Shown here piece after piece: positions 8,927-62,094 of a stretch of 64,000 nucleotides of DNA (its first letter is position 1; every line of letters begins with the position of its first letter). The notes beneath the pieces were generated by a model, which worked only from the letters and a program-made list of their open reading frames with translations, made no database searches and was not told where the DNA came from. Origin of the DNA: Octopus vulgaris (Eukaryota). Made by a program: the position numbers and the translations under genes. The DNA is taken from positions 103,168,001-103,232,000 of the forward strand of contig OX597823.1 in the NCBI GenBank assembly GCA_951406725.2, given 5' to 3'.

Positions 8927-9543
8927 CAGTCAAATTAAATGGACAGTAGTCAAGTAGATGTAGGATATCGTGAAATGAGTCAGTGAGAGAGCCACTACTT
9001 GTCCGTTATGCTAGAAATAGCAGCTAAATCTTCCTCGAATCCAGCACTTATATTAAAAAAGGGATACATTGAATAGCCTAGTCGTATTATTGAAAGGGGA
9101 ATGTCAGCTGTAAATGTTTCGATTAAGGGCATGCCCAGTCACAGAATGACAGTTGACATCGGGTTAAAAAAAACAAACAAATGTATTAGAAGCAGTACTC
9201 AACAATCGTCTTAAGAATAGTAGTTATTGTAGCGGCAGTTGTAGTAGTGGATGTAGAAGCAGTAATATTGGAACTTGCATGTCAATGAGAGCCCATTGCT
9301 GTCCTGAGATTAATAGATAGTGGGAGGGAGGGTGAGAGAGAGAGAGAGAGACTGAAAGAGAAAGAGAGGGTGGGCGGAGGTGAGAGAGAGAGAGAGAGAG
9401 TGAAATAAACAAGGCGTCACTATTTCCTCGTTAGAAACCCAGTAATGGTTGCTTGCTCTTGTTCACAGCACATTAGATACCTGTTCTAATTAAAGAAAAA
9501 AGAAAAAAAAAAAGGGATAATATTTTTCTCGTCTTTCGCAGAG
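7309..9543. promoter_or_regulatory. Candidate bidirectional promoter region with putative non-coding first exons of MPG (minus, donor at 7308) and iRhom (plus, donor at 9544)
   Basis: Outward-facing consensus donors: AAA|GTAAGT on minus at 7309/7308 and GAG|GTAAGT on plus at 9543/9544. The interval has few recognisable transposons and several CpG-containing motifs. Both first coding exons start with acceptors, so upstream UTR exons are required. Confidence 0.45.
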
Positions 9544-10426
9544 GTAAGTCTATTGTCTTTCGTTTCCACCCAAATTACTTTCTAATGTCCCGATTTATCA
9601 CAAATCTTTCATTATTACCTTAGTTGAATTAAATAGCGGTAAACTTTCCTTCACTGCCTTTGTTATAATTGATAAAGGTAAACTTCCTTAAAATGTTTTA
9701 GTTACTGATAGAAGTATAAATCAGACTTTTTATGTTTTAGAAACCATATCTGGAAATGTGCAGGTGAGCTTAGGAGATATTACAATAATTAGAAACGACC
9801 TTTTTAGAGTTGAAATACCTGATTTCTCCCCACTTCCTCTTTACATGTATCAACAAAACCCTCTTGGCTTGGATATACTTTTTAACTAAAGGCCGATTTA
9901 TTAAATGACCAGTAATTATCTCGGTCATTCTTTCTCATGTATAAATTGAAACCAATAAGTAATTAATAAATTACTTAAATTGTATTAGTTTCGGTTCTTC
10001 ATACCAATGTATATCTAGTTTTTCTCCAGGTTGCTAGCTTATTTTCATTTAGTCCTAGGCCAGCTCTAATTGACGAAACGTATGATCAATGGTGAGCCTG
10101 CCAATCGTGCCCATCCCATTTTAGCAATAGAGGTAAACATTAAAGTAAACCGAACAATTACCCCTAAATTGTTTACTAATAGCGGCCTCTCCATTTTGGA
10201 TAATGATAGAGGCAAACTTTCCTCTCCTCACATGATAGATTTCTTTAAAACATGGTATCTTATTAAACTCATCCACTGATCACATAAGCACAAAACATAT
10301 ATCGCCACACAACCTAAAGAATGTTGGATTTCCTTACTCATCTCTACTCTTTTCTTTCTCTCTCTATGTGTACAAATACATTGATACATACATACATACA
10401 TACACACATACGTGTGTATGTATCCA

Positions 10427-10467
<41 letters not shown>

Positions 10468-11335
10468 AATGCATATATTTTTTTTATTAATCGAGATCGG
10501 ATTGTTTCATGTACTGGAACGAAACTCTCGACCTTTGAGTCACCGTAACGTCTACTGATTATTAATAAACATCAATATATATATTCTCATGTTTTGAATC
10601 ATTTTCCTGTTTGCATCACCAAACACCACACACACACACACACACACACACACATGCATGTATGTTTTTATGTTCAGTTATATATATATAACAAAAAACA
10701 ATTTTTCATTAATCAGAAGGGTTACTCTATACTTTTGTAGAGTACAAATTTAATTATTCTTAATATTAATTGGATAGTGACTTCGAAGTTTCGGGCAGCT
10801 AAATCATCGTCGGACTGTATAATAATATTGAGGGTGAGGAGTGAATGAGCGCACAAAAGCGAGAAACTCCAAGTAGCACCAAAGTGAATCATCAACTTCT
10901 GTGTCTTTGTGTGTGCAAATAAATACTCACATACATACATATGCCTCACATCTCTCTCTAACACACACACACACACACACACTTACACACATGTATGTAT
11001 GTGTGTATATATATATACATACACATTTGAAAAACATTTTGAAGTGGTGTATTTTTGAGTGGGGTGCAAAAGGAAGTCTTGTCATATAGTTGGTGATATC
11101 ATATAGTAAGTAGGTGGGAAATTTAATCAAGCGAAAGAAAGTTTTTTAGTACTGATAGGTAAGAATGAAATTAATATTTAATACAAAGTTGAGTGTAAGT
11201 TGCCACTCGGAGTCCCCGTTCGCGATTCTCAGGCGACTTGTTGTTACTTGAGGGTTCGGGATTGTGTGTGTATGTAGGTGTATTTTTTAAACATCACGAA
11301 ATTTGAAAATAAGTTCTTTCACGAAGTTGCTCAAA

Positions 11336-11668
11336 TACATATATACATACATACATGCACACACACATACATACACACGTACATACACACATACATACAT
11401 ATACACATACATACACACATGCATTCATTCACACATACATACATACATTCACACATACATACGTTCATACACACGTACATACACACATACATGCATACAT
11501 ACACACATACATGCATTCACACATACATATATACATTCATACATACATACATACATACATGCATTCACACATACATACATACACACGTACATACACACAT
11601 ACATACACACATACATACACACATACATACACACATGCACGCATTCACACATACATACATGGATACAT
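11336..11668. repeat. (TACA/CACA)n compound microsatellite
   Basis: Directly visible. Confidence 0.95.
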
Positions 11669-13178
11669 GCAAGTTTACAAAATTAAAATTTGTTACATTC
11701 ATATTTGAAATCGCCAGACCGAATTCGTAGTCTAAGACACTGCGTCATGATATTGAGTCCTTTATTTAGTTCCGCTACCTTTGTTCCCACGAACATGTGC
11801 ACCATCCTTTATATTTATTTCTAAAGCTATGGTATCGTAAACAACACATAACTTAATATATAATAAACTTGAAGGGCGTACTTCACTTAATTAAACTTAA
11901 TTTCTAAAATGGAATATGTCTGGGGAAAAGGAAAAGACGTGCGTATGTTAGGTATTACTTTCATGAAAAGGTTCCTCCAGAATCGTGGATCAGTTGCCTG
12001 CATATAGATATACATAGCTGTGTATGACTTCATACATTGTATATATCCAATATATGAATATGCTTATGTGCACAATGATTATTTTAAACTCTAAAAGGCT
12101 TCCTGTTTTCAAATATGTATTTTCCTTTGACCATTTCTACTGTATATATTCACAAAATTCTGTTTTACACACATAACCCCCGCCCATCCCCGATTAGCCG
12201 ATGTTACATCATTTACATCCATGCTATAAATATTTTGATCATGACATGTGAGCCTTGTCACGGCTCTTTAGTTTATTCCAACAACCATTGTGGATATTTG
12301 ACCATGCTATAGCAATGTTTTGTGTTGGTGTTCGTATTTGTTTTACAAAATGTATCGGTGACTCAGCTTGTTGCCTTTTTCATTGAAGACTTGCATCAAT
12401 AATGTCTGAGTATAAACGGATCCAAAGATATTACAAACCGTTTCTTAATGAATCATACAAATGTCTTTTCTCTCTTTCTTGATTTACCAATATGTATTTC
12501 CCGAAAATAATCTCTGACAGTTTCAAATATAATTAATTAATTATTTAAACCAAAACTAATTCTAATTAACTACACAATAAATTAAAACCTTGCAAAAATA
12601 TACAACATAAACATAATTACCTCACTTAGCGTCTAATTACTTGGCCTGTTAAATTCATTTATAATGTTTATATAAAAATGTGCATGACAAGTATTCATTT
12701 CATATATGTATGTATTTTATACAATGTCCAATACTTGTGTGTGTGTATGTGTAATTATATAGTCGTTTAAGAATCCATAAGTCAGGACAAAGGCACTCGT
12801 TTGTGGATATATTTAATCAACGTATATTTATTTTCCATTCTGCCATTTCTGAGAAGCAGTTATTAGAAATTTGTCTGATTATCTAATATCAAGTGTGAAA
12901 CCAATTGCTTAATGGATCTATAATACTGTATACACCATTTAACGTCCGTTTTCCACGCTGGCCTGGGTTGGACAGTTTGACAGGAGCCGGTAAGACTGGG
13001 GGCTGCACCAGGTTCTGTTGTCTGTTCTGGCATGGTTTTCTACGGCTGGATGCCCTTCTTAATGTCAACTACTTTACAGAGTTCACTGGGTGCTTTTTAC
13101 ATGGCACCAGCAGCAGTGCTTTTTATGTGGCACCATACACTGATTATATTATATATGTATATATATATATATATATAT

Positions 13179-13419
13179 AAACCACCTTTTATCAATTCAA
13201 AATGAATGATTAAATTACACCATCTAGAAAATTACAAATAATAGAAAAGTTAAAATTAAAATAACAATTAAAAAGTAAAGATTAAGTAAATTACAAGAAT
13301 AATATAATGTATATAATTGGTACTTTTTAATTGTTATTTTAATTTTAACTTTTCTATTATATGTAATTTTCTAGATGGTGTAATTTAATCATTCATTTTG
13401 AATTGATAAAAGGTGGTTT
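13179..13419. repeat. Near-perfect 99-bp inverted repeat with 43-bp spacer
   Basis: 13179-13277 is the reverse complement of 13321-13419, with one mismatch seen. Confidence 0.92.
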
Positions 13420-13553
13420 TTTTCTAATATTCTATATATATTATATTGTGTGGAATTTAATTTAGTATTTCTAAATTGAATTCTTTTTCCTTGTAAGTTT
13501 GGATTTTATTCCCTCAAATAATGATTATGTATAATATATATATATATCTGTAT

Positions 13554-13592
<39 letters not shown>

Positions 13593-13671
13593 GTATATCA
13601 TATATATATATATATCTGTATATCATATATATATATCTGTATATCATATATATATATATCTGTATATCATC

Positions 13672-13702
<31 letters not shown>

Positions 13703-13744
13703 TATCTGTATATCATATATATATATATATATATATATCTGTAT

Positions 13745-13786
<42 letters not shown>

Positions 13787-13911
13787 TATCTGTATATCAT
13801 ATATATATATATATATATATCTGTATATCATATATATATATATATATCTGTATATCATATATATATATATATATCTGTATATCATATATATATATCTGTA
13901 TATCATCTCTC

Positions 13912-14288
13912 TCTATATAAACGGCAGTTTGTCTGTGTGTGTTTCTGTGTGTCTGTTTGGTTGTACCCTCACCCTGACCACTGCTTTCAACCGATTCTGA
14001 TGAAACTTGACACACACATAGCCCAATGTCATAATTCAAAACTAACGCAGCGAAAATTTTGAAAAGTTCCCCCAGTTCTGAAAAAAATCGATAAATTCGA
14101 CATGGGGTCGAGAATCAGAAACACAAACCACAGACTGTCTAGGGGACGCAACTCGACCTTTTTTAACTCAAAAAAAATTTACCATCATTTTTTTCCCATT
14201 ATTTTGCTATTTTTTGGCTATAACTCTCTAAAAATGCTTTATAGTTATTTCCCTTACAAACCTGAGCAACGCCGGGCGATACTGCTAG
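13912..14288 (+). mobile_element. Non-autonomous Helitron-like element
   Basis: 5' TC start, subterminal hairpin CCTGAGCAACGCCGGG, 3' CTAG|T end, inside a (TA)n array. Confidence 0.72.
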
Positions 14289-14698
14289 TATATATATATA
14301 TATATATCTGTATATCATATATATATATATATCTGTATATCATATATATATATATATCTGTATATCATATATATATATATGATATACAGATGGCTTATCT
14401 GGAAAAGCAGCTTAGACCCTACTACATGTCTAAATACAAGGACAGAGCTTTTCGGATCATGCCCACATGTGACTAAGTTTCTGTTACGTTTTTGGTCCCC
14501 TAAAGAAAACAGATAGAACATGCTTTCTATGTTATGTCCCAAGAAGAATTTATATATTTTTATATATTTTTTATGTATTTTTATATAATTTTTATGATGA
14601 AAAATGCGAGCGATGTATAAGTACGCAGGCAAGCAGAGTTATAACAGAGTAATTTCCCTTTATTTAACGGTATTTTTTCATAACGTTTTCAAATAGCC

Positions 14699-14761
14699 AG
14701 ATAACCGAAGAGATGGTGTTGTGGATTTCCACTTCGGCATCTGAAACTCAGAGTTTTATCT
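14699..14761 (+). ncRNA. Variant hammerhead-like fold (U4C core, extra U before GAAA)
   Basis: AGATAA-CCGAAGA-GATG...CATC-T-GAAA-CTCAGAG-TT-TTATCT. 6-bp stem I, near-palindromic stem III, GUU triplet. Confidence 0.45.
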
Positions 14762-14889
14762 TGACTACCGAGTAATGTAACATATTGTATAGATAAATTT
14801 CCTCTATTTACATAATATTGAGGTCTCTTTCTTTCTTTTGTTATCTTACCGTTTTATCAATATATATATATATATATATAAATCTGTAT

Positions 14890-14934
<45 letters not shown>

Positions 14935-15209
14935 CAAAATTAGAGTATGGAGAAACATACTTAAATCAATAAAACATCAACTATCCGATGATACCCAATC
15001 AATACTTTAATACACCATTACATATGAGTAAAGGCATTATACAAAATGAGATATACAGTAATAGTAAAAAGATAAAGAGATATAAGTAAAAAATTTCAAA
15101 TATAATATGCAATTAAATCAAAACTGACAGCTGTTTCGGCAGTGAGGGCAGTCGCAGTATATTGGATATATATTATCCCATGGTGGGTTGAATTTTCAAC
15201 CCCTATCTC

Positions 15210-15251
<42 letters not shown>

Positions 15252-15558
15252 GTATATCATATATATATATATATATCTGTATATCATATATATATATATA
15301 TATCTGTATATCATATATATATATATATATCTGTATATCATATATATATATATATCTGTATATCATATATATATATATATATATATGTATATTATATATA
15401 TATATATATATGTATATCATATATATATATATATATATCTATATATCATATATATATATATCTGTATATCATATATAGATATATATCTGTATATTATATA
15501 TATATATATATCTGTATATCTATATATATATATATATATATATCTGTATATCTATCTA

Positions 15559-15627
<69 letters not shown>

Positions 15628-15729
15628 GTATATCATATATATATATATATCTGTATATCATATATATATATCTGTATATCATATATATATATATATATAT
15701 ATCTGTATATCATATATATATATCTGTAT

Positions 15730-15760
<31 letters not shown>

Positions 15761-16166
15761 CTGTATATCATATATATATATCTGTATATCATATATATAT
15801 ATATGCCTGGCCCCGTGCCGGTGACATGTAAAAGCACCATCCGTTCGTGGCTGTTTGCCAGCTCTGTCTGGCACCTGTGCAGGTGGCACGTAAAAAGCAC
15901 CCACTACACTCACGGAGTGGTTGGCGTTAGGAAGGGCATCCAGCCGTAGAAACACTGCCAGATCTGACTGGGCTGATGAAGCCTTCCAGCTTCACAGACC
16001 CCAGTTGAACCGTCCAACCCATGCTAGCATGGAGAACGGACGCTAAATGATGATGATGTGATGATGATATATATATATATATATATATATATATCTGTAT
16101 ATCATATATATATATATATATATATATCTGTATATCATATATATATATATATATATATATCTGTAT

Positions 16167-16203
<37 letters not shown>

Positions 16204-16228
16204 GTATATCATATATATATATCTGTAT

Positions 16229-16267
<39 letters not shown>

Positions 16268-16292
16268 GTATATCATATATATATATCTGTAT

Positions 16293-16331
<39 letters not shown>

Positions 16332-16933
16332 GTATATCATATATATGTGTATGTGTGTGTGTGAATATGTGTCATACCTCACCTTTAACCGTCACTTATT
16401 ATCTACGGTCAATTCCCCACACCCATCATGACTCAATTACTATAGCCACCACTTCATACATCTGACTTCCATCTCTGTCTCCTTCCACTCTTCCACCCAG
16501 CACATCATCTCTCTATTTTCTGATCTATCTACAGGTTTATTATACTACTACTACTACTACTACTCTACAACCCTTTCTGAACTGTCACTTAACTTGTATC
16601 CTCTCATACTTGAGCATCTCAAATCCTGACATCAAGCTACTTCTCCCTCGACTGCAATCCCATTCAGGCGAGGGAGTTTCTTTTACTTTGTATTGCAAGT
16701 TATATGGGGACCTCACTAACACCAATGTCATGAAGAAGAGCACCCAATACACAGTGTAAGAGACTAATGTTAAGAAGAGCATCCAGTCATAGAAACCATG
16801 TTAAAGCAGACATCGAAGCTTGACTGGCCTGCAGCTAAAATGATTCCTGTCATACCATCCAACCCATGTTAGCATGGAAGAATGGAGGATGTATATTAAA
16901 TGATGATAATATGTATGTGGGTCTGTGTCTCTA

Positions 16934-18561
16934 TATAATCAAATGAATAACAGATGATAGATAATTGTCAGCTCATTACAGCTGTTTCTTATGCATATTT
17001 ATATTGGCTGCTGCATAAATCTCAAGGGGTGCTTATGCAACGACTATTCATCTTTTAAATTAAGACATAGGGCTGGCAGGATGTCTCTAGCCACAAAAAT
17101 TTGGGAGATTAAGGACGATAATGTTAAATTTGATAGAGTTGGGACATTATTAGGGTCACTAAACTGTTCTTAAACAGTAGATACAGATGCAGACTTTACT
17201 GCATGGGGCTTTTTGAAATTTTAAGGAGATCTAATAGTGAAAGTCTACTAAATAATAAACTAGACCTTTATCTTTCCTGTATCCATAAAGCTACCTGCAC
17301 ATTTAAATACTTTAAGGACATTAAACAACCCCTATAATAGCCCCCAACCTAGGTCCAATCTAATTTACTCCCTCTTTTGCTGACCCTTTCGTTTATCGAT
17401 TTACTCATTCATTTCTGAGTCCTTCTGGTCTCGTTTTCCCTTTACCTTTTAACTGCTCTTACAATACATACATGGTATGCTACATTGAAGGAAGAACTAA
17501 CCATTCTATCCGTGGTGTACCTGGTATTATGCAGTAGCAATGACAGTGATACTTAACCTCTGGTAGCAGCCTGCACACCCTAGCCAGTTTGTTTCCATTC
17601 CTACTAGGTATGTATTCCTTACATCAGCATACAGTCTTTTGAGCAGCATTTGTTAAATAGTAGATAGAACACACTATCCAAACCTCTCACCCATGACTAT
17701 TGTTTCGAGTTGCTTTACCTAATTCACACAAAGGTAATTATACCAATCCAATTTTGATATCATCGCCACCTGTTTAACATTCCATATTGTTAATCATTAG
17801 ACTACTGCCTACTGCTGGCTTTCCTTGATATCCGATCTGCTAATTCCTCAAACTCTGTACTAAGTATAGTTCATTTAAGCTCCTTATTGATAGGTTGCAC
17901 TCTACTATAACTTCAGTTCCATAAAAGTTAGATCTTGTTATTTGATTGCCTTTGTACCCTCCCCTTACTTTCAACCAATGTCCACTGAATACCCCTAAAT
18001 CTTGTCTATCTCTGTCCCCCTCCCTTATATCACTAGCTAGAGATTCTTATACCCTGACCCTATTGCCTGATTGGCTTGTATGCTTTTACTTTTCATTTTT
18101 CCTTCACTCTTATGTTTGATTTATTTATCGTTTATTTTTTGCTTTATCCTTAATTTATTTTATGACCTCTCCTTACTTCCCACTGCTCTAAGCCTACTAT
18201 AATAAATTATCACCTACACCTCACTCCAGTCTGCCTATGATCTAGTCTAGCAGACTCCTCCTCACCTCAATCACTGACCTTAGAGATCATATTACACCCT
18301 TTCAAGAACTATATTCTTAACCTGAACGGCCAACATAGTTGGTCATTCTCCCATATCATAGTTGATCTCCATAGACTCCATCCACACATCCCTCCTCTAT
18401 TCTTGGAATATTCTTTTGTTTTGTAAAATTACTTCTCATCTGATGATTACGGGCCTTTTATAATGGAGTAATGTTCTCATTCTACTATTAAAAAGTTATG
18501 TAAGAAACAGCTGTAATGAGCTGACAGTTATCCATCCTATGCTATTATTCATTTGATTATA
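16934..18561 (+). mobile_element. 5'-truncated Penelope-like element: GIY-YIG remnant, long 3' region, HHR-bearing terminal repeat, inverted partial repeat at the 5' junction
   Basis: 16994-17290 translates IYIGCCINLKG..SSFKLRH..SLATKIWEIKDDNVKF (PLE endonuclease). 16934-16991 is an imperfect reverse complement of about 18501-18561. Confidence 0.75.
18435..18520 (+). ncRNA. Type-I hammerhead ribozyme in the terminal repeat of a Penelope-like element
   Basis: CTCAT-CTGATGA-[57-nt hairpin TTAC...GTAA]-GAAA-CAGCTG-TA-ATGAG. Core intact, 5-bp stem I, palindromic stem III ACAGCTGT, GUA triplet with predicted cut after 18515. Confidence 0.8.
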
Positions 18562-18601
18562 ATACACCAAGGAAATTTATGACTTGTCAGATACCCTAGA
18601 G

Positions 18602-21060
18602 CAGGGGTGGGCAACCTTTTTTGAGAGTGCTTGCCAAAACTGGCAAAATCTCTGACACAAAATTCTTGCACGTGCCAACCAAATTTTTTGGAGAACTACT
18701 TAAGAAAGTAGATGTGAAGAACTCTTTTAATAAATGATAAAAAAAATCATCATAGGGTAGTAAAACACAGTATATAATGATGGGAAATGTATTCATTCAC
18801 CTTCAAAGTTACATCTAAACAGCAATGAACTTTTGCCACTTTTAAAAGACATCAGATGAAATATCAGTCTGGCAGAAAACTTGCAGACAACCTTTGCCAC
18901 TTTCAAAAGAAAACATCAGTCAGATGAAATATCAGTTTGACAGAAAACTTGCTGACTCCTTTCACTATACATGTATATATACAGTATTATCAGTGGGTCT
19001 TCTGCTGCTGCATCACTGATGACACAGATTTTGTATCGGGGTTTATATTTCATAACCTTCAGAGATATGCATGTCCTACTAGTTTCATCCGTCAGGTTAC
19101 TCCTATTACAAGACTTAACAAATTTGATCACTGAGAACAAGGATTCAGAGGAATATGTTGATAAAAACATGGAAGTTTGTGCTGTTGCAAATTTTTTTAA
19201 ACTGGAAAAATTTTCTGGAATGGCATCCCAAGTTCTTAATAATTTGTTTTCCACACTCCTCTCTGGTACTCCTGTCACTAATCGCTTTTCTTCACTATTT
19301 TTTAAGTCCACTCTAAGATCAATAAATTTTTGCTTCCAAATTGAGCTACTTTGAAATTCAATCAACTGCATTTCAAAAGCAACCATTTCTATCCATGAAA
19401 TCATTTGTATGTTTAGTTCTTCCAGTTTGATAATGTCTGGGAACTTCATGAATTTTGGTGTTTCTTCCAGTTCCCTGAATTTAGCAAACCTTGTAAAATA
19501 CTGCTCAAAAAGTTGACATTGTAATGTTCTGTCATCTTTTGAGAGATCATTGATGTATCTCTTTAGGTTTGGGAAGTATCTAAATCTCTCATTGTCCATA
19601 TCCTTCTTAAAAACTTCTACCTTCATTTCAAAAGCCTTTATGTAACCAAACATAACATCAAGTGTAATTTAACATTGAAGTCATTCAAATGTTCACAAAA
19701 ATCTGCAAAAAACACCAGTTTACAAACCTACACGATGTCAGACAGTTCTTGATGAGAAACATGTTGGTCATTCAAAAAAAGCTTTATCTCATTTATGCAT
19801 TCAACAATCGTTTCAGAACCAAACCTCAGCTAAGCCATCAAACATTGTTGTACATTTTCAGTCCTTTATACACCGATTCTACCTCATTCAGTAAAACGTG
19901 ACATTATTTAAAGCCTGAGCAGAAATGTAATTCACAACCTTGGTAACAGTCTGCATCATTTCCTGAAGTTCCTTCGGGCCCGCTTTTGCACATAAAACCT
20001 CCTCGTGTAAGATGCAATGAAAACCTATCAGTGTGGGGACCCAACCTAGGCCCCCATATCTACGGCGTTCGCTGCTGGAATAAAGAGTGGTTGGAGATCA
20101 CGCGGTCGTTAGCCTCAAATTGCCAGGTCTGGTCGGTGTTTGTGAGAGATGCAACATTGAGGATGAATGAAGCCAGCTCAACCCAGGTGAATGCTGTCTC
20201 AAGTCAAGTCAATCAGTGTGTGACCAACTTCTTTTGCAAACAGGTTTATAAATCCTACCTTCTCACCAGTCATGCTGGGAGCACCGTCTGTTGTGATGGA
20301 TACTACTTTTGAAATGTTAGTTTGTTGAGAAGAGAATTCGTTCACTGCTTCTTTACATATTTCAGCCCCAGTAGTATGCTCAGGCAGTGTTAGAAGGGCA
20401 ACCGTCTCTTCACATATTTCATCACCATCACAAAATCGAGAAAAAGTGGCTAACCTAGCTGATGATGTAATGGCCGTACTCTGAACTTTCATCAATACAA
20501 ATAGAAAAAACCTACATGAAGTCAAATCTTTTGTCAATTGTTCAGAAGTGTTCTTCTCCAACTTAAGTATTCTATACTTAACCATTTTCCTACTTACAGA
20601 CAATTCTTTAATGCACTGAATAATCTTTTCCTTTTCTGTAAAATTGTCAAAAAGGAAATTTGCACACTCTAGCCAAGCTCCTTTAATATTCTCCTCATTA
20701 CTGAGTGGCTTTCCATGCTGAGCAATTACTTTTGAAACCTCAAGACTAGCAGCAGCTAAGTTGGAACTGGTTTTACCCGAGATAAAGCTTATAAAAGTAT
20801 CAGTCTGTTTTTTTGTTTTGCTGAGTTCAGGAGAAAATAATTCTCCTTGTTCCTCTTCAGTTTAATTGCTTAAGTTCTTATGAACACTTTCAAAATGCTT
20901 TTTTTACAGAAGGAGTTCTATAAACAACAGTTTTGGAACAGGAAATACATAATGCTTTATTGTTTTTCTTAATCCTACCAATCTTTTCAGTCTAGTATTT
21001 TTGAAATTCTGTAATAACCTCTTCCGTTGAATGACATCATTTCTTAGCTGGGGGTCCTGA
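18602..21060 (-). mobile_element. hAT (Charlie/Buster, GTF2IRD2-like) transposon fossil
   Basis: TIR CAGGGGTGGGCAAC at 18602, preceded by CCCTAGAG. ORF pieces include SITTDGAPSMTG and SMFLSTYSSESLFS...RSNLTDE; frameshifted. Second TIR not found. Confidence 0.85.
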
Positions 21061-22229
21061 CATTCTGCACAATGTATAAAGGGCTGACAAAAAAAAAGAA
21101 AAGAAAAGAGAGAGAGAAATAATGATATACATGAAAAAGGAGGAAGAAAAGTAAAATGTCTTTAAGTGATTAATAAGTTTGATTAAACCACTTTACTTTT
21201 TATTAGTTTTTTAATTAAAGTAAACAAAAAAAAATTAGTTTGCTATCCACACAAAACGGTAGGGTGGGCGTGGTGCAAACATAAGTAAAGAAAAGACAAA
21301 ACATGCAACAAATCACGACATGACTACCCAGACTTGCATGAGGGCTGAATTTAGCGGCATCGACCTGCAGCCCTTTAAATATGATTTAGTCACTTGAACA
21401 TTGGTGGACATCAAATGATCTGCACAACAAAAATTACAATACAGTACTAGCTCATTTATTAGAAATTGTCAAAAATGTTGTGATATTATTGTACACAAGC
21501 TGTACAAGTATATTTACTGTATTCATAAGTCAGGACAAATAGCATGATAGGAAATCAAGGAAGAACTGCATAAATGTAAGTATATTTTTCAACTTATGTT
21601 TAATATACAGATCAGATCTGTATTACAAAGAAACATTCTAGAAAACTTATCTATTCTTACAAGGATTTCTAATCTGACCAGATATACATACTATGGAACT
21701 TGTTTTACACTTGTTTAGGCAGCATAATCAAATCTGTTGTTATACAAGATTAGTATCAATCAAATCTACAGTCACAAGATATAATAAAACCATGCAGATG
21801 GCACCCCTATGCCACTGATGCCCACTAGCATAGCTGGTCCACCTCATCTCTCTTAGAAGCCAAAGCTAGGGTTAAATTTAAGCAAAATAGACTAAGAATC
21901 TTATGAAGTTGAAGTACCAACTACTGGCAAGTGCATTGTTAACATGATCTATGGGCCACCCAGTGAACTAGTGTGGCAGACACAAGAATTTGAAGTTCCT
22001 GCTTGTAAATTAGTGCAGATCATAAGAGGATCTGAACAATCAGTGTCTGGAAAATTGGCGTAGATCTTGTTTATCTGTCAATGTATGTGTGTGTGTGTAT
22101 GTATATATGTGTGTATCTATATGTGTATGTATATGTGTGTGTGTATATATGTAAATATATGTTTGTGTTTATATATATATTCTGACTCCATAGCTTCTAT
22201 GCAACCCATGGAAGCCACCTGGATGTTGC

Positions 22230-22620
22230 CCAATATGTTCATTGAAGTCACCAGCCACGAAGAGAAGAGTCACTGTCATTTGTTGATGAGGTAGTCTGCA
22301 AATGGGTGTCATTAAGTCAATCTTTCTCATCATCTGACACTACGGTTGAAGAGTGCAGACAGGACAAAAATAACAGTTGCTGTTCCACTTTGCAAATTTA
22401 GTTTAAGCTTAAGTATCCTCTCACACACTCTGACTGCCTTATCAACCCATTTCTCAACAAGAAGTATGCTCACACCACCAATCCTATTACTATTACCGAC
22501 ACAGAAGAAGGTCCCCTCCACCTTACTTCTTGAATGCAACATACCTACATGCCTTTGCTCCAGTATCTTGACAATCTCACCAGACCTACCTTTCAGTTTG
22601 TCCTTTCTCTAAGGGTGAAG
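22230..22620 (-). mobile_element. RTE AP-endonuclease fragment
   Basis: GGVSILLVEKWVDKAVRVCERILKLKL, typical of the RTE endonuclease N-terminus. Confidence 0.6.
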
Positions 22621-23279
22621 AAGGGAACAGGTGGATGGGAGACAGCATTCTGCATCTAAAAGGTTTGTATTGACGTTTGCCAGGCATATCATATAAGTTC
22701 ATATGGGTTATCTTACACTTCACACTTGCTGCATCAACCAGAAGAAGAGGGTGAGTTATACACTACTGTTTATACAAGGATGAAATAGCACTGAAAATTA
22801 ACTCCACTTGCCACATCTACCAGAAGAGGAGGATGTAGTATACAAGATAAGATAAATAAAATAGAGCCAATAATTGGCCCATTGGTATGTATACTTGTCA
22901 TATCTCTGATGCTAGCAATGCTGTTTTTATCTTATTGTAGTAGTGGTAGTACTACTGTTGCTGCGAATGGTCTAATGTCAACGGGAGGTGGAAGAAAGCT
23001 TTCTGTACAGGTTTCTGATATAGAAGGGAGGTTCCAAGAGAAAGACTTCCTGTATAGGTGTGGGATGGGAGGGTACATTGTGAACTACAAAGTCACATGG
23101 TTGCAACTTCTAAAAAAAAGTGAAACTTCTAAAAATGGAACTGACAAATGCGTGATAAAACAGCATGAGAGGGCATGATAAACATTCAACAAAATAGCAT
23201 GGGAACCCAGGATGTATATCTCTGTATATATTGGGAGTATAGATTATTTATTTGCATAATGACTGTCTCAGGAAAAAAT

Positions 23280-24481
23280 AAAACGTTTTTATTTTTTGAG
23301 ATATATTCAAATTTGTGTCTGTTTGTCTTCATGACATCTGTTGATCTCACTTGATGAACCCATCTTTAGCCTTGATGATATCCTCCAGGTGACCTTGGAA
23401 CCAGCCACAGGCCATTGTCACTATCTCCTGTTTTAGGCCTCTGAAGGCCCTGGTAATCCTGGCTCTCAGCTCATCCTTTGTGTTGCAGCTGGATTGGTTG
23501 GTCTCTCTTTCCACTGCACCCCACACAAAGAAGTCAAGGGGATTGCAGTCAGGTGAGTTAGGAGGCCAAATGTCAGGTGTTGTGTGATCGAAGGCTGATG
23601 TGGTTAGAGTGCAGAGTCTTGCTGTCACATGTATGGCCTCCCTGTAGCTACCCAGTCGATCCAGGGCTGCACCACCTTGCTCAGGGTACAGATGTAGCTG
23701 TCGGTGTTCAGCTTGAGGCTCTTAGGGAAGAAGTGGGGTGGCATTATATCACCTTCGCTGTTGATGACATCAAAGACCATGATTGTCACTGGAAATTTTG
23801 TCTGCATGTCTCATGGCATGTCTTTGGGTGAGACTGTGAGCTATCTGCAGTATGGGGAGTTAATCTTCTGATTTTGACAGAAATTCTTCTCATTGGAGAA
23901 GAACCACTGCATGTCTGGCTTCAGTGAGTATTTTAGCTTGTTGGTCAGCTTTTGGTGTACTTGAGTCACTTTTCTTGCATTACCTTGGATAGAAATTGTT
24001 TCTTCCTCATCTTGCATGAAAGGTAGCGAATGTCCTCACCAGTCTGTTGAGCTTATCATCCACATCTTTCTCTTGTTCAATGGCACACATTGATTTGCTG
24101 GGATCATTGTTGATGATTTGGATTTCAGTGATGAATTCTAGTGTTCTGATGGCATCAGATTGGCGATCATAGATTTTCCTCTCTGCTGTTGCTTCATAGT
24201 CAAATCCTGCATCTTCCAGCTCCTTTCTAACCCTTTCCACCATCATTCTGCTGACTCTGAGGAAGTCTGAAATTCTTTGATTGTCCTTACAGCACAGATT
24301 CCAAGAAGGACTCTGTGCTTCTTCCACAAACTGGTGAGGTCTAAAACCTTCCAAGGTCAATTCTGCAAAAAAAGTAAAAATGGGTTTTTGTTTTTAAGAA
24401 GAAATAAACTGACAATAGAAGTTTTAAAAAATGCATAAAATTAGCAGTTGAAAATTGCAAATGAATACTGTCAGCACCCTG
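23280..24481 (-). mobile_element. Tc1/mariner-superfamily transposon fossil (maT/DD37D-like)
   Basis: WPPNSPDCNPLDFFVW motif and WFFSNEKNF; terminus CAGGGTG next to TA at about 24481. Confidence 0.82.
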
Positions 24482-24574
24482 TATATACATACGCATGTCT
24501 AAGTATATATGTACATTCATATGCATATTTGTATGTGTATATATATATATATCTATATATATATATATAATCGA

Positions 24575-24990
24575 TCGACATCAATGGAATTTGTAGTTGT
24601 GGTACCAGTGCCGGTGGCACATAAGAGAACCATCCGAACGTGGCTGTTGCCAGCACCGCATCAACTGGCCTCCGTGCTGGTGGCACGTAAAAAGCACCAT
24701 CCGATCGTGGCTGTGCCAGCCTCGCCTGGCCTCCGTGCCGGTGGCACTTAAAAAGCACCATCCGAGCGTGGCCGTTCGCCAGCCTCGTCTGGCACCTGTG
24801 TCGGTGGCACATAAAAAGCACCCACTACACTCACGGAGTGGTTGGCGTTAGGAAGGGCATCCAGCTGTAGAAACATTGCCAGATCAGACTGGCCTGGTGC
24901 AGCCTTCGGGCTTCCCTGACCCCAGTTGAACTGTCCAACCCATGCTAGCATGGAAAGCGGACGTTAAACGATGATGATGATGATGATGAT
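24575..24990 (+). mobile_element. Solo RTE 3'-UTR copy; related copies at ~634-845(-), 4213-4660(+), 12935-13135(-), 15805-16068(+), 30215-30470(-), 30790-31162(+), 37350-37590(+), 62709-62910(-)
   Basis: Matches the 3' UTR of the LINE at 56476-56870: GTGCCGGTGGCAC.TAAAAAGCACC units, GGCGTTAGGAAGGGCATCCAGC, and a (GAT)n tail. Confidence 0.85.
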
Positions 24991-25199
24991 ATATATATAT
25001 ATAGTAAGTCCCAAAAAATGAAGAGCAAACACGAAAAAAACAACAACACGAGGACATTATTTGAAGCGGGATGTCGTCACGGATCATCTTCAACGTTGGG
25101 AGTGATTATTCAATCGCACTGATCAGCTACTGCTGATACAGTCAGCAGATCAGCATTTGATACAGTCAGCAGTCAGCATTTGATACAGTCAGCAGATCA

Positions 25200-26490
25200 G
25201 GACTGTACATGGTGCTGGGAAAATGTGGCTGTCCCCCTTTACTACTGCAGCAGCTCATTGTTTCGTTCCATGATGATATGAAGGCCACCATTCAGTTTGA
25301 CAGTTTAATATCAGATAGCTTCAACATCGACAGGGGAGTAAAACAAGGTTGTGTCTTCGCATCAATCCTTTTCAGAATTTACTTTGCTCTATTGCTGCAG
25401 TATGCATTTCAAGAGTTGCCGGGAGATGTCTACCTTTGTTGGGGAACTGATGGGTCACTCTTTGATCTTTCTAGACTTCAGGCCAAGACTAAGATCAATA
25501 GAGCAACAATAAGAGACTTTCTCTTCACCGACGATGCGGCACTTGTTGCTCACAGGGAATTAACTTTACAAACAATGATGGACCACCTATTATCAGCATG
25601 CAAGGCCTTCGGTTTGGTCATCAGTGTAAAGAAGACAGTCATCCTCACTCAGGAGGACACAGCAAAAGGCCACATAAAGCTTGAGACAGTGGACAGGTTC
25701 TGCTATCTAGGGTCTACCATTTCCTCTACTGCTTCACTTGATGATGAGATTAATGTCAGGATTGGGAAGGCTGACAAAACGAGTATGGAAGAACAAGAGA
25801 TTAGACATCAAGATCAGGGTTTATGAAGCATGTGTTCTCAGCACACTCCTCTATTGTTCTGAAAGATGGACCTTGTACAGCAGACAGGAAAAATGCTTTG
25901 GCATTTTCCATCTCAGATGTCTCTGCAAGATCTTAGGGCTAACATGGCGCAACAAGGTCACCAATGTTGAAGTGCTGGCCCATGCGAATCTTCAAAGCAT
26001 GACAGCTATCTTGTGTATGAGAAGATTAAGATGACTGGGGCATGTCAGGAGAATGGATGACCATCAAATCCCGAAGCAACTGCTCTATGGAGAACTGGTC
26101 CAGAGCAAGAGACCAAGGGGAAGACCAAAACTGAGGTATAAGGACACTTGCAAAACTAGTTTGTCCAAGTGTGAGGTGGATGTCAGCACCTGGGAAGAGA
26201 GGGCTCAGGACAGAACAACATGGAGGACTGTGGTGAAGGAAGGAACTGCTTCGCTGGAGAGCAGCTACAGAAGAAAACAAGTTGAGAAGCATCAGCAGTG
26301 AAAGGAAAACAACAGAAATGCAGAGCACTGAGAGCCACCCTGTTGGTATGCAAGTACTGTGACAGAAGCTGTGTTTCAATCATAGGAAGAATCAGCCATG
26401 AAAGAAGCTGCAAGAAAGGGAACCCCTGATATGTTCGAGTAAGTGATCTCTAAGCTAAATTGACCACCTGCATAGACGAAAAGGGTCAAT
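25200..26490 (+). mobile_element. RTE (BovB-like) LINE 3' fragment
   Basis: GVKQGCV, FLFTDDAAL, FCYLGS, IPKQLLYGEL..RPRGRPKLRYKD, terminal C..C...H..C remnant; frameshifted. Confidence 0.88.
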
Positions 26491-26910
26491 TATAATTATT
26501 ATATTGTATATTTGTATATATGCTTTTACTTGCACAAGAATGTAGACGTTACTATGATTTAACCCCTAATTCACTTTCTGCTGACCTTTGTAAAAAACCA
26601 AAAAACAAACCCAAAATATATTTTGTCTCAACTTGCACTTAATGTTTTATATGGGTGTGTTGTGTGTGTGTGTGTGTGTGTGTGTTTTAACTAATACAGG
26701 AATGTAGATGTCACTGTGACCTGACCTGGAAATCACCTGCTGACTTTCATAAAAAGTACATCCAGATATACCTTATTATTCTGTCAAAGATGTACTGTAA
26801 TCTAAAATGCAAAATTCATGGAAAAATATGCACTTGGTTTTTCTTTCCTTCTTTTTGGAATGTCTATTGTTATTTTTGTTTTGACCTACCTGAACTTGTA
26901 TTCAATACTT

Positions 26911-26946
<36 letters not shown>

Positions 26947-27026
26947 ATTTGGTTTGTTGTGAAAATGGTACTCCCTTTCTCACATGACAAGAGTGGTGAG
27001 TAGCCATTATAAAGTCAGACAGTCAT

Positions 27027-27785
27027 TGTAGGAGGTCTGTAGAGTTATTGTATGAATTCTCAGTTGGAATCGGTGTCAGTTATGTGATTTATATGAGTTT
27101 GAGTTACTGCCAAAGTCAACGCTTCAAAGTCATTGTCTTGCAGATCTGTCAGTGATAGCACGATAGATGGGTCAAAGATATAAGACGCGGAATACTGCCA
27201 CAACACATTAGTGGTGACAAGAATATTACAGTACCAAAGATAGAAGTGGATGAGGATCCACATAATAACAGTGGCAACAAGGATTTAAACAATTCATGTG
27301 GAGAATGTTGGAAAAAAAATTTTTTCATGAGAAAATAGACGATTCACACAGATGACGTTGAAGAATTTTTTTGTGTTGAGAAATTAAAAACTCAGCAGCT
27401 GAGTCACAAACATTTTTGTTGTATATATTTTAGAAAAAATCCGTAAAATTGTGGGAAAACTTGTTAATGGGTTTTGTTGAGTTGCAAAAACAGCAACAAC
27501 AACAACTCAAAAAACAACAAGAACAACAACAAATGCTACAACTAATGAAGTTGGTAACAAAACTGGAAAATATGTTTTCACCAGACCATGTAGCAAATTG
27601 AATAAATGAATTTAAATATGACCCAGAAGGAATTACTTTTGAGGCCTATTACTGAAGATCTGACCAAATTTTTGAAAAAGAATGAGAAGACTGGATGGAC
27701 GAACTGAAACGCGTCCGATTCTGAAGAAACTGGTGAAAATAGAGTATGAGAAATACCGAAACTTTATATTGCCTAAAAAAAGTTT
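27027..27785 (+). mobile_element. Ty3/Gypsy LTR retrotransposon remnant (putative 5' LTR 27027-27270, PBS-like TGGCAACAAG, degenerate gag)
   Basis: TG...CA-bounded segment followed by a PBS-like motif. 27570-27780 translates, with stops and a frameshift, EFKYDPEGITFEAYY...EYEKYRNFILPKK, resembling invertebrate Gypsy gag. Confidence 0.65.
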
Positions 27786-27810
27786 CTGTCCTTTATGTTT
27801 GAAGATCATG

Positions 27811-27899
27811 AATTCATCTGATGAAAATGGTTTCTTTACAGTGATGTAATGTTCTCATTAATCAGTTAAAGGAGTTGCTGGAAACGGCTGTAATGAATT
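27811..27899 (+). ncRNA. Type-I hammerhead ribozyme, same family as 18435-18520
   Basis: AATTCAT-CTGATGA-[hairpin capped by TAATG-TTCT-CATTA]-GAAA-CGGCTG-TA-ATGAATT. 7-bp stem I; the base of stem II is degraded. Confidence 0.72.
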
Positions 27900-29054
27900 T
27901 TACTTCTTTGTTACTCATATTTTATTCATATATCCTAGAAAAAGTTGCTGATAGAATAAGTACTAGGCTTACAAAGAATAAGTCCTGGGGTCACTTTCTT
28001 TGAGTGAGATTAGTTTTGGATAAATGTAAGAGAAGAGATATGAGAAGTGATTTAGTGTAGTACTCTATGAGTAACTATTGTTTCTATACATTAATTACAC
28101 ACTCACTCTTACTTCTTACCATACACATTCTAACGGTTCCATCCTTCCTTATACTGCCTAGATGCCACAATGCAGATGTGCACTACTTCTTTAAATAGAT
28201 ACCTTGGAAATGCTGTCCAATAGAATCATAATAACTTAAGTTTCCTTCAACAACACAAAGACACAGTTGCTACCGAAATCAACTAAAAACTTCTACAGTT
28301 CAAACTCACTAGACTAAGAGGACTTAAAAAACCCCGTTGATGTTGCCCTTCCCTCACTCCTGACCAATCAATAAATCATTAGGTTCAACTCTCTCTAACT
28401 TTCATGACTCTGATCCATCTGTCCATTTTCTCCACCTACTATTCCTGGGCAGCAACTCCTCCATTGGGTTCTATTAGAAGCAATCCTCATTACATTTTCC
28501 TGCTAGATTCCCAAGCAACTAAAACTCTTATTATTTCATGCATTTCAATCTTTGATGGCACTTCTCAATAACACCCAGACCCATCTATTAACAACTTATG
28601 TTTTTGCAAGGTAATCAGTGAAATTTGGACTCTTATGAAATAGTTGTAATCAGTTCCTCTTTGCTTTTCCCATAGCAAACTCTTCTTTCTGTATGGTGTC
28701 TGATAGTTTGGATGTTCTTTCCAGGATTCTTCAGAATGGCATGATGCATGATTGTGCAGGTACCATCCAACATAATATTTTTGATGGTGTAAAAGATGCA
28801 CAGAAGATGCACCCCAGTTTCAGTAGTACATATTCAGAGTAACAGTTTGTATTGCATTAAAGTTTATAGGAGCCCAAGTTTGCATATCAGACCTGGGGTG
28901 ACCTTTGGGGACATTTAAAAAAAAAAAAGTGCCATCAAATATGGTAGTTTATATATATATATATGTATGTATGTATATTTGTATTATTTTAATTTCCTGT
29001 AATTATTCTTTTGTTTTTCAATTTCAGATCTCAATTTGACACCAAATAAAGAGA

Positions 29055-29182
29055 ATGGCAACACATCGAAAATCTTCCACTCCGAATCCATTTCAGCATG
29101 AAACTGTTCCAAAACAAGCCTCGAATCTATCAAATGTGGAACAACAACCAGCTTATGATAATCGTCTGCGAAGGCTTAGCTC
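29055..29182 (+). CDS. RHBDF1: Inactive rhomboid protein (iRhom), coding exon 1 (exon begins 29028, ATG 29055)
   Basis: ttttcaatttcAG acceptor at 29027, with an in-frame TGA before the ATG. Encodes MATHRKSS...RLRRLS. The phase-2 donor TC|GTAGGG joins in frame to 29618. Confidence 0.75.
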
Positions 29183-29617
29183 GTAGGGACAAATTCTTTG
29201 CATTTCCTAACATTGTATTTCATTGCATTAAAATTTTCAAAGAAAAATGAGACCATCATGATGATTTAACGTCTGTTTTCCATGCTGGTATAGGTTAGAT
29301 TGCTTGATAGGAGCTGGCAAGGATGGAGAGCTGCACCAGGTTCCATTGTCTGGTTTGGCTTGGTCTCTTCAGATGAATGCCCTTCCTAACACCAACCACT
29401 CCACGGTGTGTACTGGGTGCTTTTTATGTGGAACCACCATAGATACTTTTTAAGTGACACCAGCACAAGTATATTTTAAAAGCATATAGAAATGGTAGTT
29501 TGAACTAAAGTTCTGTATTCGTTTTTTCCTTTTGCATTTGAACTTTTAAATATTAATCTCGGAACAGATTGCCTGTTGACTTATTTGATCTTTTCATTTT
29601 TTTCTTTTTTTCCATAG

Positions 29618-29948
29618 CTCCATGAAGAACAACGTTGCAGATTTCTTTGGAGTTGGCAAAGAGAATGAAAAGCGTGAAATGGAATGGCATAATCGACGTT
29701 TACGATATCATAACACCATTGGCAAAATCAAAGACGATTATTTGAGAACATCAATGGATGATCAAGTAGACTCAAGTTTGTATTTGCAGGCATTACCCCG
29801 TGAAATACATGACCCTTACAAACGACCAAGTCATCACATATCTTACACAAGTGAAAGCACCAGTACCACCTACAAAAGACTACATCCCAGAAGGAAACGG
29901 AAAGAGTCAGTAGTATCATTAACATTAAAAGGCATATCATCAATTACT
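29618..29948 (+). CDS. RHBDF1: iRhom coding exon 2 (cytoplasmic N-terminal region)
   Basis: SMKNNVADFFGV and RRKRKESV resemble the vertebrate iRhom motifs ADWFGV and RRRKRESV. Acceptor ccatAG, donor ACT|GTGAGT. Confidence 0.9.
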
Positions 29949-58478: not shown

Positions 58479-58496
58479 TATATATATATATATATA

Positions 58497-60386: not shown

Positions 60387-60398
60387 GCGATATATGTA

Positions 60399-60453
<55 letters not shown>

Positions 60454-61658: not shown

Positions 61659-61820
61659 GCTGATCTCATTCACTTGGGGGCCAAATATTCTCCATGTATG
61701 CGAAAAGATAAGAACATATTGGATGCTTTGGAAAAAGATCGAAACCTTGAGCGCGAATCAGCTTGTTGTGTCCGTAATGATGGATCCGGTTGTTCCCAGA
61801 TGACTGAAAACAGATGCAGT
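61659..61820 (+). CDS. RHBDF1: iRhom coding exon 8 (start of Cys-rich luminal iRhom homology domain); gene continues beyond the window
   Basis: ADLIHLGAKYSPCMRKD...SACCVRNDGSGCSQ closely matches the iRhom IRHD motif. Acceptor cctAG, donor AGT|GTAAGT. Confidence 0.96.
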
Positions 61821-62094
61821 GTAAGTAACAATAAAGTATTTGAGTATCAGGATTATGAAGAGGAATTCACAAGAGGTTCTATAGACATCAACCATTTTGT
61901 TACCATATTGTTATTTTCTTCAGCTACCTCTGTTAACCCTTTTGATGCCGATGCCAGTACCCCCTGACTGGCTCTCGTGCCGGTGGCACATAAAAAGCAC
62001 CAACTACATTCTCGGGGTGGTTGGTGTTAGGAAATTGTGTCATCTTGTCATTATCTCATCCTTTCATGCTTACTGGTTCTACATTATTGAATAT

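Follow-up and report, generated by a model that had tools for sequence, protein, structure and literature searches.

Long-stem-II hammerhead ribozymes of Hydra-type Penelope-like elements at the iRhom locus of Octopus vulgaris

The window analysed here is a 64-kb stretch of the Octopus vulgaris genome in which two hammerhead ribozyme motifs with an unusually long stem II lie on the strand of a putative iRhom gene. The locus raises the question of whether the two motifs act together on the host transcript, as the original prediction of a heterodimeric ribozyme held, or have another origin. They are, with high probability, the end repeats of two old and separate insertions of Hydra-type Penelope-like elements (PLEs), probably carried in the iRhom 5' intron as inert passengers, and their long stem II is a trait of the element lineage.

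The two hammerheads and their elements

Both motifs are real and lie where they had been predicted, each with the CUGAUGA and GAAAC boxes and an AAUG-UUCU-CAUU cap. Copy 1 (18435..18520, + strand) is a type I hammerhead with a palindromic stem III; it sits in an old Hydra-type PLE, within the 3' pseudo-LTR. Its stem I is formed by 18435-18439 and 18516-18520, the CUGAUGA box occupies 18440-18446, the 57-nt stem II spans 18447-18503, and the GAAAC box starts at 18504, with a predicted cut after 18515 (all + strand). Copy 2 (27811..27899, + strand) has its stem I at 27811-27817 and 27893-27899, a 56-nt stem II at 27825-27880 and a GAAAC box from 27881, with a predicted cut after 27892 (all + strand). 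CUGANGA and GAAA boxes and a U16.1-H17 site are found in both copies, and stem I closes the 5' and 3' ends with 5 bp in copy 1 and 8 bp in copy 2, as expected of type I. In copy 1 stem II is closed beside the core by a U-A pair at 10.1-11.1 (pairing probability 0.7). Copy 2 lacks this core-closing pair (A·G), whereas the other eight members of its clade pair there. The A·G mismatch alone is not fatal, since 10.1-11.1 is mismatched in 29/83 old copies of the family and U·U occurs there in published Hydra motifs (PMC8557442).

A scan of both strands of the 64 kb for generic hammerheads returned three candidates, namely copies 1 and 2 and a weak match at 4098. Rfam at gathering thresholds gave no hammerhead match in the window, its only two matches being a 5S rRNA and a tRNA; the long insertion in stem II is the likely cause of the miss. 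Copy 1 belongs to a 5'-truncated PLE (16998..18600, + strand) comprising a broken GIY-YIG endonuclease remnant (about 17000-17316, + strand), a 3' region of ~1.1 kb, the hammerhead and a tail, and ending at a hAT-like transposon. An inverted half-copy of the same pseudo-LTR, consisting of the 3' half of the hammerhead and the tail, lies at 16934..16997 (- strand) and had been overlooked in the original prediction. Copy 2 lies in a solo pseudo-LTR fragment of about 155 bp from a different subfamily (27787..27940, + strand).

The old family, its younger sisters and the long stem II

The two-box pattern has 83 intact-core matches in the genome and none in the reversed control, so the motifs are not due to chance. 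The 16-nt 3' box is matched 393 times (2 in the control), and the 1.6-kb element body is repeated genome-wide. The inverted piece is found upstream in 26/83 family copies and downstream in 0/83, and element tails continue into TA repeats. Copies 1 and 2 fall in different starred clades of a family tree that took in the 10.2-11.2 columns and whose bootstrap is not settled; judged by their sequences, they are separate insertions of different subfamilies. The cap is exact in 24 of the 83 old copies, with loops of UUCU (42), UACU (12) or UUUU (7), and its AAUG-UUCU-CAUU form is the commonest family state, shared by descent. The fourth pair of stem I is kept in 75/83 copies; the first three were preset by the search pattern. 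RNAalifold on the 83 copies gave no consensus structure, and the A-U/U-A swap at 10.2-11.2 needs just 1-2 changes on the tree, counts of changed cells not being counts of independent events. The old-family stem II arm is three-segmented. For the window's own family, the 150 of 12,464 candidates that were scored yielded no long ORF (frames open for 329 aa at most at ≥58% identity), and the old-family pattern had no match in metagenome contigs.

A reverse transcriptase (RT) remnant is followed by the endonuclease (EN) in locus L094, and the RT-EN order is intact in the sister-family locus L174. The GIY-YIG label is weak (Pfam E 0.023, below the cut-off; atlas 0.93). The CxCX5C linker, and CxxC and CxH flanking conserved E and N, were recognized by eye in L137 and L174 against PMC8557442. 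RWR and DKT motifs (RWK and DKT in the reference) are present in L174, this region coming from the sister family only, and the CCHH motif seems absent from the endonuclease by eye. Pseudo-LTR, inverted truncated copy, tail and (TA)n targets are all present. By its C-terminal GIY-YIG-like domain with the CxCX5C linker and the CxxC and CxH motifs, the element is a PLE with Hydra-type motifs. Assignment to the Naiads was rejected, the endonuclease being C-terminal (it follows RT) and that of Naiads N-terminal. An endonuclease beside L006/L095 was likewise rejected as belonging to this element; it is of another family, ~37% identical to that of L174.

The younger sister families account for 2,145 hammerhead matches in the genome (control 0). 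Their stem II of 56-59 nt has the same length as in the old family and a largely different sequence, 29-33 of 57-59 columns of the arm being identical between families. One of them, represented by L174, whose hammerhead lies at 7383-7482 of that locus, has an intact ORF of 1,091 aa, and in sister-family loci the same repeat stands before and after the ORF. In the young stems 93% of cells are paired, with both sides changed in 61 instances, compared with 26 in shuffles. In 12/33 distinct young rows the two sides of the palindrome centre have both switched from G-C to A-U; these palindrome-preserving double changes, with the 8/8 pairing of the window copies, uphold the reading of the motifs as type I PLE hammerheads with a dimer-type stem III. 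The 10.1-11.1 pair is U-A in 43/83 old copies and G-C in 34/46 young ones. The compensatory changes and the constant length across families show, at the level of sequence comparison, that the long stem II was kept by selection in the element lineage while it was active. A tertiary contact by the cap, proposed earlier, is doubtful; the cap loop was rejected as a conserved docking loop, as it varies within the family and is wholly different in the sister families.

Hydra-clade PLE hammerheads were already known (Craig et al. 2021, PMC8557442) and are alike in being type I, in the sense strand and near the element 3' end, with a short palindromic stem III, in several cases ACAG..CUGU, and a cut after A. 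The elements themselves share the C-terminal GIY-YIG with CxCX5C linker, the inverted 5'-truncated copy, the tail and the TA-rich targets (PMC8557442). In the 25 Hydra elements tabulated in that paper, the sole octopus family Hydra-1_Obim among them, the boxes are separated by no more than about 26 nt (by eye), compared with 51-61 nt in the octopus copies; stem II is indeed unusual, as had been noted. Long-stem-II precedents in the same paper are PLE-X1 of spike mosses (about 48-53 nt between the boxes) and eight cases of 'HHR_half_core' Naiads (core halves 35-50 nt apart), but these are of other clades, EN-less or with an N-terminal EN, and are single consensus entries flagged as deviating, for which the consulted parts of the paper hold no covariation analysis. 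Minimal metazoan PLE hammerheads (Cervera and de la Peña 2014, PMC4209133) are also dispersed, mostly single and variable, with palindromic 15.2-16.2, a dimer model and close opposite-strand pairs; their helix II differs, having 6-8 bp and a conserved G10.1-C11.1, where the old octopus family mostly has U-A. Amniote intronic hammerheads, the CPEB3 ribozyme and the Clec2 discontinuous hammerhead, whose cleavage is linked to a poly(A) signal, resemble the octopus copies in lying in a host intron or having a large insertion, but are host-conserved loci (PMC6765202), whereas the octopus copies belong to a decaying repeat family. No description of a long-stem-II hammerhead variant was found in the literature searched, although Lünse et al. 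2016 may list such variants.

The iRhom gene and the fate of the inserted copies

The host gene is iRhom, on the strand of both hammerheads, as had been proposed; this is supported by a homology-domain match (exon piece 61737..61823, + strand; E 3.3e-4 to iRhom1 over 29 aa) and by spliced RNA contigs. An exon at 29028..29182 (+ strand), with a likely start codon at 29055, is spliced in 4/4 runs to the next coding exon (29618..29948, + strand), and each contig has 38-135 more letters upstream. A putative non-coding first exon lies at 9407..9543 (+ strand), with its donor at 9543 and its presumed start taken from the longest contig overhang; between 9310 and 27000 there are three consensus donors, none beyond 11158, and the 9543 exon is plausible as the first exon of iRhom. 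An exon at 9204..9308 (- strand), detected in one of four runs and with a loose end resembling an MPG exon near 1980, is probably exon 1 of MPG, which is transcribed divergently, and likely marks a shared MPG/iRhom promoter region. RNA contigs place copy 2 in an intron, as had been expected, and copy 1 is likely intronic too. None of the contigs in the four runs covers copy 2 itself, which is uninformative either way.

Decay was followed in 30 loci chosen by element body, blind to the ribozyme, 25 of which span it. Core differences (34/368) were compared with flank differences (495/4197; p=0.15); 8 of the 25 retain an intact 11-nt core. Inserted copies thus appear to decay at about the neutral rate, the core bases being lost about as fast as the flanks. 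Few old copies are as well preserved as copy 1, which has 0/15 core differences (expected about one time in five at a 10% rate, by hand arithmetic), 3/56 differences in stem II and 18/173 in the flank, and which ranks 82-83 among the 83 for having the base of stem II formed. Copy 2 carries damaging changes, the A·G at 10.1-11.1 and those behind a predicted misfold, a GCUG(GAAA)CGGC hairpin with probability 0.98.

The two copies had been proposed to form a heterodimer that cuts the iRhom pre-mRNA co-transcriptionally. Both are sense to iRhom and keep their catalytic boxes, and their stem III 8-mers do pair 8/8, although cross-complementarity is a family-wide trait by which any two members cross-pair. 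The co-occurrence of two such copies is uncommon; for two intact-core copies that differ in subfamily and share a strand and a 10-kb interval, the expectation is ~0.01 pairs from 83 copies and ~0.3 from 393 (hand arithmetic, in a window picked for this very feature). All folding energies given here are predictions. Relative to the two monomers folded separately, the mixed double hammerhead is predicted to be less stable by 5.5 kcal/mol; of 600 family pairs drawn at random, 54% score equal to or better than copies 1 and 2. The heterodimer would also require stem I to cross-pair, with 4 and 5 bp, against 5 and 8 within the copies, and 9.4 kb separate the two. The inverted copy (16934-16997) is predicted to pair with 18497-18561 in a + strand transcript, in a duplex of -76 kcal/mol (-19 for the entire copy 1 fold) that is present in the 16900-18650 MFE structure, so that the 3' half of copy 1 would be clamped by its own half-copy; copy 2 is predicted to misfold. 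Minimal PLE hammerheads have low activity in vitro and are poor cleavers even as dimers (PMC4209133), the PAc hammerhead cleaves only with its protein (PMC11167929), and spliced iRhom contigs occur in 4/4 runs, with which partial cutting is still compatible. A heterodimer acting on iRhom is therefore most improbable. An effect of copy 1 alone, as a sense intronic poly(A) site, as an inter-transcript homodimer or, with its inverted half-copy, as a 65-bp dsRNA editing substrate, is also very unlikely, if slightly less so. Its AUUAAA hexamer (18487..18492, + strand), which lies on the 3' side of stem II with its last base 23 nt short of the cut site, is kept and followed by a U/GU-rich tail, the homodimer is predicted to be slightly favourable in isolation (-1.5 kcal/mol), and the long duplex is itself a prediction; but the hexamer is predicted to be paired (probability free 0.0005) and the cut site to be blocked by the inverted copy. 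The iRhom-specific claim adds little.

A likely poly(A) signal within stem II

Copy 2 has lost its hexamer, but an AAUAAA or AUUAAA hexamer stands 24-25 nt before the cut site in 44/46 young copies examined (AAUAAA 21, AUUAAA 23) and occurs in 55/83 old copies; shuffles give 2.6-2.7%. It is readable on the opposite strand too in 18/46 young copies. The feature fixed across families is thus this poly(A)-signal hexamer and not the cap loop. The hexamer probably serves the element as its own poly(A) signal, and the long stem II likely carries and partly hides it ~24 nt before the cut site. In the consulted parts of PMC8557442 no hexamer within stem II is described, and 5/25 Hydra elements have one just upstream of stem I.

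In an active element, the repeat with its hammerhead would stand before and after the ORF, and the two hammerheads of one transcript would join by their palindromic stem III into a dimer and cleave in that form, a step suggested by the literature and the palindrome-preserving changes. Genomic 5' junctions were compared with the cut site for traces of such cleavage: 3/30 tail-picked copies start within ~2 nt of the cut (by eye), and in a fairer set 9/50 start between -6 and +12 of it, three at -1 or 0 and five at +3 to +12, with no sharp peak. We tentatively propose, as a possibility short of a favoured one, that the Hydra-type lineage carries a composite device, in which a dimer-dependent hammerhead holds a poly(A) signal in a stem II of 56-59 nt and the sites of ribozyme and poly(A) cleavage coincide; in the 5' repeat the signal would be masked by folding, and the RNA would continue into the tail that reverse transcription uses. 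In retroviruses such as HIV-1, a terminal repeat at both RNA ends contains a poly(A) hairpin in which the hexamer is partly paired. The octopus hairpin differs in that it is part of a hammerhead, as its stem II, and the cut site of that hammerhead lies where poly(A) cleavage would be expected; the likeness is an analogy only.

It is about equally conceivable, and still short of probable, that the long arm is only a structural or protein-binding platform, for instance for the RT/EN protein, and the hexamer an A/U-rich structural leftover. PAc cleavage needs the ORF protein (PMC11167929), the hexamer is partly paired within stem II, and integrated copies extend ~34-45 nt beyond the cut site, which means that the RNAs they were copied from had undergone neither cleavage nor polyadenylation at that point. 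On the other side, the hexamer switches between AAUAAA and AUUAAA, the two commonest poly(A) signals, and keeps its distance of 24-25 nt from the cut, while so little of the rest of the arm is identical between families. Such a platform concerns the role of the arm and is compatible with the window copies being passengers.

What PLE hammerheads do is a standing question: their cleavage in vitro is poor, and in the sole reconstituted system insertion does not require them (PMC11167929, PMC4209133, PMC8557442). Because its copies are near-identical, its ORF is intact and its natural covariation is strong, the young family opens this question to direct testing, and the fixed poly(A) hexamer provides a concrete hypothesis for it. 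Earlier relaxed searches used a 7-17-nt spacer for the cores (PMC8557442), and long-armed hammerheads may therefore be undercounted. If the composite device is real, it would give PLE hammerheads a defined job, represent a class of hammerheads missed by short-spacer descriptors, and mean that more than 2,000 ribozyme-plus-poly(A) cassettes have been seeded across the octopus genome.

Hammerhead copies and their carrier element

Two hammerhead motifs lie on the forward strand at 18435-18520 (copy 1) and 27811-27899 (copy 2), with predicted cut sites after 18515 and 27892, as in the original prediction; an Rfam scan of the window returned no hammerhead match. A two-box pattern gave 83 matches in the genome searched (control, 0) and the 16-nt 3' box gave 393 (control, 2), counts so far above the controls that both motifs belong to a repeat family dispersed in the genome, here termed the old family. 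Copy 1 forms the end of a 1.6-kb repeat (16998-18600) that is found genome-wide and begins with a broken endonuclease remnant. Longer relatives carry an RT remnant and, after it, a GIY-YIG-like domain (a label weak by profile) with a CxCX5C linker and CxxC/CxH motifs. A C-terminal GIY-YIG, CxCX5C and CxxC/CxH are features that section 11 of PMC8557442 lists for the Hydra clade of Penelope-like elements (PLEs), and the old family is assigned to this type by motifs. An inverted half-copy of the copy 1 repeat lies at 16934-16997 (minus strand); such a truncated piece is the usual PLE insertion layout according to PMC8557442, and is present upstream of 26 of the 83 old-family copies and downstream of none. 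The element is interrupted after copy 1 by a hAT-like DNA transposon (18601-about 21100; weak Pfam match, E 0.0087), beyond which no continuation was seen among the matches listed. Copy 2 is carried by a solo fragment of ~155 bp from another subfamily; a tree of the 83 copies, in which stem II columns are included and the bootstrap is not settled, separates copies 1 and 2 into different starred clades.

A 5' boundary ~50 nt before the hammerhead is shared by the window (about 18384) and loci L006, L015, L026, L044, L063, L069, L070, L079 and L090, and is likely the repeat start or transcription start of many old-family copies. Two copies, L073 and L074, have almost the same flanks although 11.7 Mb of a single contig separates them, and are likely a segmental duplication. 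Other remnants in the window are an endonuclease C-terminus of another Hydra-like family (14388-14513, plus strand), between the large TA arrays of the intron that likely holds copy 1; a disrupted coding sequence shortly before copy 2 (27560-27780, plus strand), which presumably resembles a Ty3/Gypsy gag region; and an open frame (59740-60615, minus strand) with no Pfam match, presumably similar, by its motifs, to the Penelope-like RT of another clade.

The iRhom intron and the proposed heterodimer

A splice from 29182 to 29618 is present in contigs of four of four runs, presumed to be RNA. Upstream of 29026 the same contigs have a further 38-135 letters, which lie outside 27000-29025, and copy 2 is therefore intronic in iRhom, as had been proposed. 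The contig match starts two letters into the acceptor AG, which is what an upstream exon ending in AG would produce, and consensus donors of the matching kind number only three in 9310-27000, with none after 11158. This acceptor overlap, the few donors and the divergent MPG exon and promoter (MPG at 1543-1995 and 9204-9308, the latter its likely first exon, minus strand) favour the putative 9543 exon as a plausible upstream exon of iRhom, so that copy 1 is likely in the same intron. MPG (minus) and iRhom (plus) stand head to head around 9.3 kb; MPG and RHBDF1 are neighbours in the vertebrate alpha-globin region as well, which would make MPG-iRhom an old microsynteny. A 29-aa piece at 61737 matches both iRhom1 and iRhom2, and the Rfam scan placed a 5S rRNA copy (58363-58481) and a weak tRNA-like match (62197-62269), both minus strand, inside iRhom introns.

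In the original prediction the two copies could pair through their stem-III 8-mers, if the 9543 exon is real, and form a heterodimeric ribozyme that cuts the iRhom transcript. The 8-mers do pair fully, but not specifically, as homodimers and any two family members pair likewise. A double hammerhead exchanges stem I strands, giving the mixed pair 4 and 5 bp, compared with 5 and 8 in the copies on their own. By prediction, the mixed structure is 5.5 kcal/mol worse than two monomer folds (homodimers: -1.5 for copy 1, +1.3 for copy 2), and its predicted energy is equalled or beaten by 54% of 600 random old-family pairs. The inverted half-copy, which precedes copy 1 by 1.5 kb in the transcript, is predicted to bind 18497-18561 in a duplex of -76 kcal/mol that occupies GAAA, stem III, the cut site and stem I. 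The predicted copy 1 monomer also hides its palindrome and cut site in a hairpin (18508-18523), common in its subfamily, which could serve as an intrinsic off state. In copy 2 the stem II pair closing the core (10.1-11.1) is A·G, the sole such case among 9 clade members, and through this G a hairpin with a GAAA loop is predicted to form across the core (probability 0.98).

Preservation of copy 1 is good (differences: core 0/15, stem II 3/56, flank 18/173) and speaks against a reading of the copies as inert, as does the closeness of two same-strand copies, of which about 0.01-0.3 would be expected by hand arithmetic, in a window selected for such a pair. Family cores differ about as much as flanks: among 30 loci chosen by element body, 25 span the ribozyme, with core differences of 34/368 versus 495/4197 in the flank (p=0.15) and the 11-nt core intact in 8. 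With unfavourable predicted energies, copy 1 predicted to be blocked and copy 2 misfolded, a heterodimer cutting iRhom is unlikely, and both window copies are probably inactive.

Long stem II in old and young families

Stem II is 51-61 nt long in all 83 old-family copies, the search pattern itself demanding 50-62. In predicted folding it is more stable than its shuffles (median z -1.55, with 27/83 below -2; adjacent controls, 0.11 and 6/83), and named pairs are kept in 84.8% of cells versus 38-49% when slid. RNAalifold gave no consensus structure for the 83 copies, as expected of neutrally decayed sequences. Younger sister families were reached by protein search. Intact Hydra-type ORFs of 1,090-1,091 aa with long Asn-rich insertions and no Pfam match occur at L174:2900-6172 (plus) and L175:3672-6941 (minus); the endonuclease of the family with the 1,091-aa ORF shares 44-51% identity with the remnant in the window. 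The L174 and L175 hammerheads are near-identical and this family is, judged from its sequences, recently active. Young hammerheads were found by a scan allowing 8-90 nt for stem II, and their pattern has 2,145 matches (control, 0). Their arms are 57-59 nt, and from family to family only 29-33 of the 57-59 columns agree. The young copies covary: in 46 of the 2,145 (33 distinct cores, some being paired ends of one insertion) pairing holds in 93% of cells, and both-side changes number 61 versus 26 in shuffles, affecting stem I, the palindrome and both the base and the tip of stem II. Homodimers are predicted favourable for 34/46 young versus 18/83 old copies. Kinship among copies inflates the counts of both kinds. 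Further candidates at L188:7499 (minus), L182:9525, L190:7121, L185:876 and 817, and L189:7812 have a stem II of 60, 26, 30, 16 and 14 nt; hence several other hammerhead families coexist.

A fixed hexamer in the stem II arm

AAUAAA or AUUAAA is found in 44/46 young copies (21 and 23 by form), ending 24-25 nt before the cut site, and in 55/83 old copies, 54 of these at 19-25 nt from the cut (shuffles, 2.6-2.7%). It is retained in copy 1, lost in copy 2 and absent from the candidate with a 60-nt stem II. The spacing corresponds to the usual poly(A) geometry, and a U/GU-rich tail lies 3' of the cut site. The arm may carry the element's poly(A) signal. Against this reading, 18/46 young copies also have an opposite-strand hexamer, the hexamer is predicted to be mostly paired, and integrated copies continue beyond the cut, which means that the templates behind them had escaped processing at this point.

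The sister-family locus L183, where copies on one strand are spaced by 3.5 and 1.3 kb, and the dimer model described for PLE hammerheads in PMC4209133 and PMC6765202 together suggest that hammerheads in two repeats of one element transcript would pair for dimer cleavage. Hammerheads in PLE repeats are already known, the Hydra clade included (PMC8557442), and the long-armed form of the old and young families is a variant on these. In the Hydra elements tabulated in PMC8557442 (n=25) the distance between boxes does not exceed about 26 nt, in contrast to 51-61 nt here, whereas the spike-moss PLE-X1 motifs and Naiad 'half cores' described there are a precedent for long spacers. Targeted literature searches of partial coverage found no description of a long-armed, hexamer-bearing PLE hammerhead. 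The combination of long arm and hexamer, as a finding at the level of the family, merits testing.
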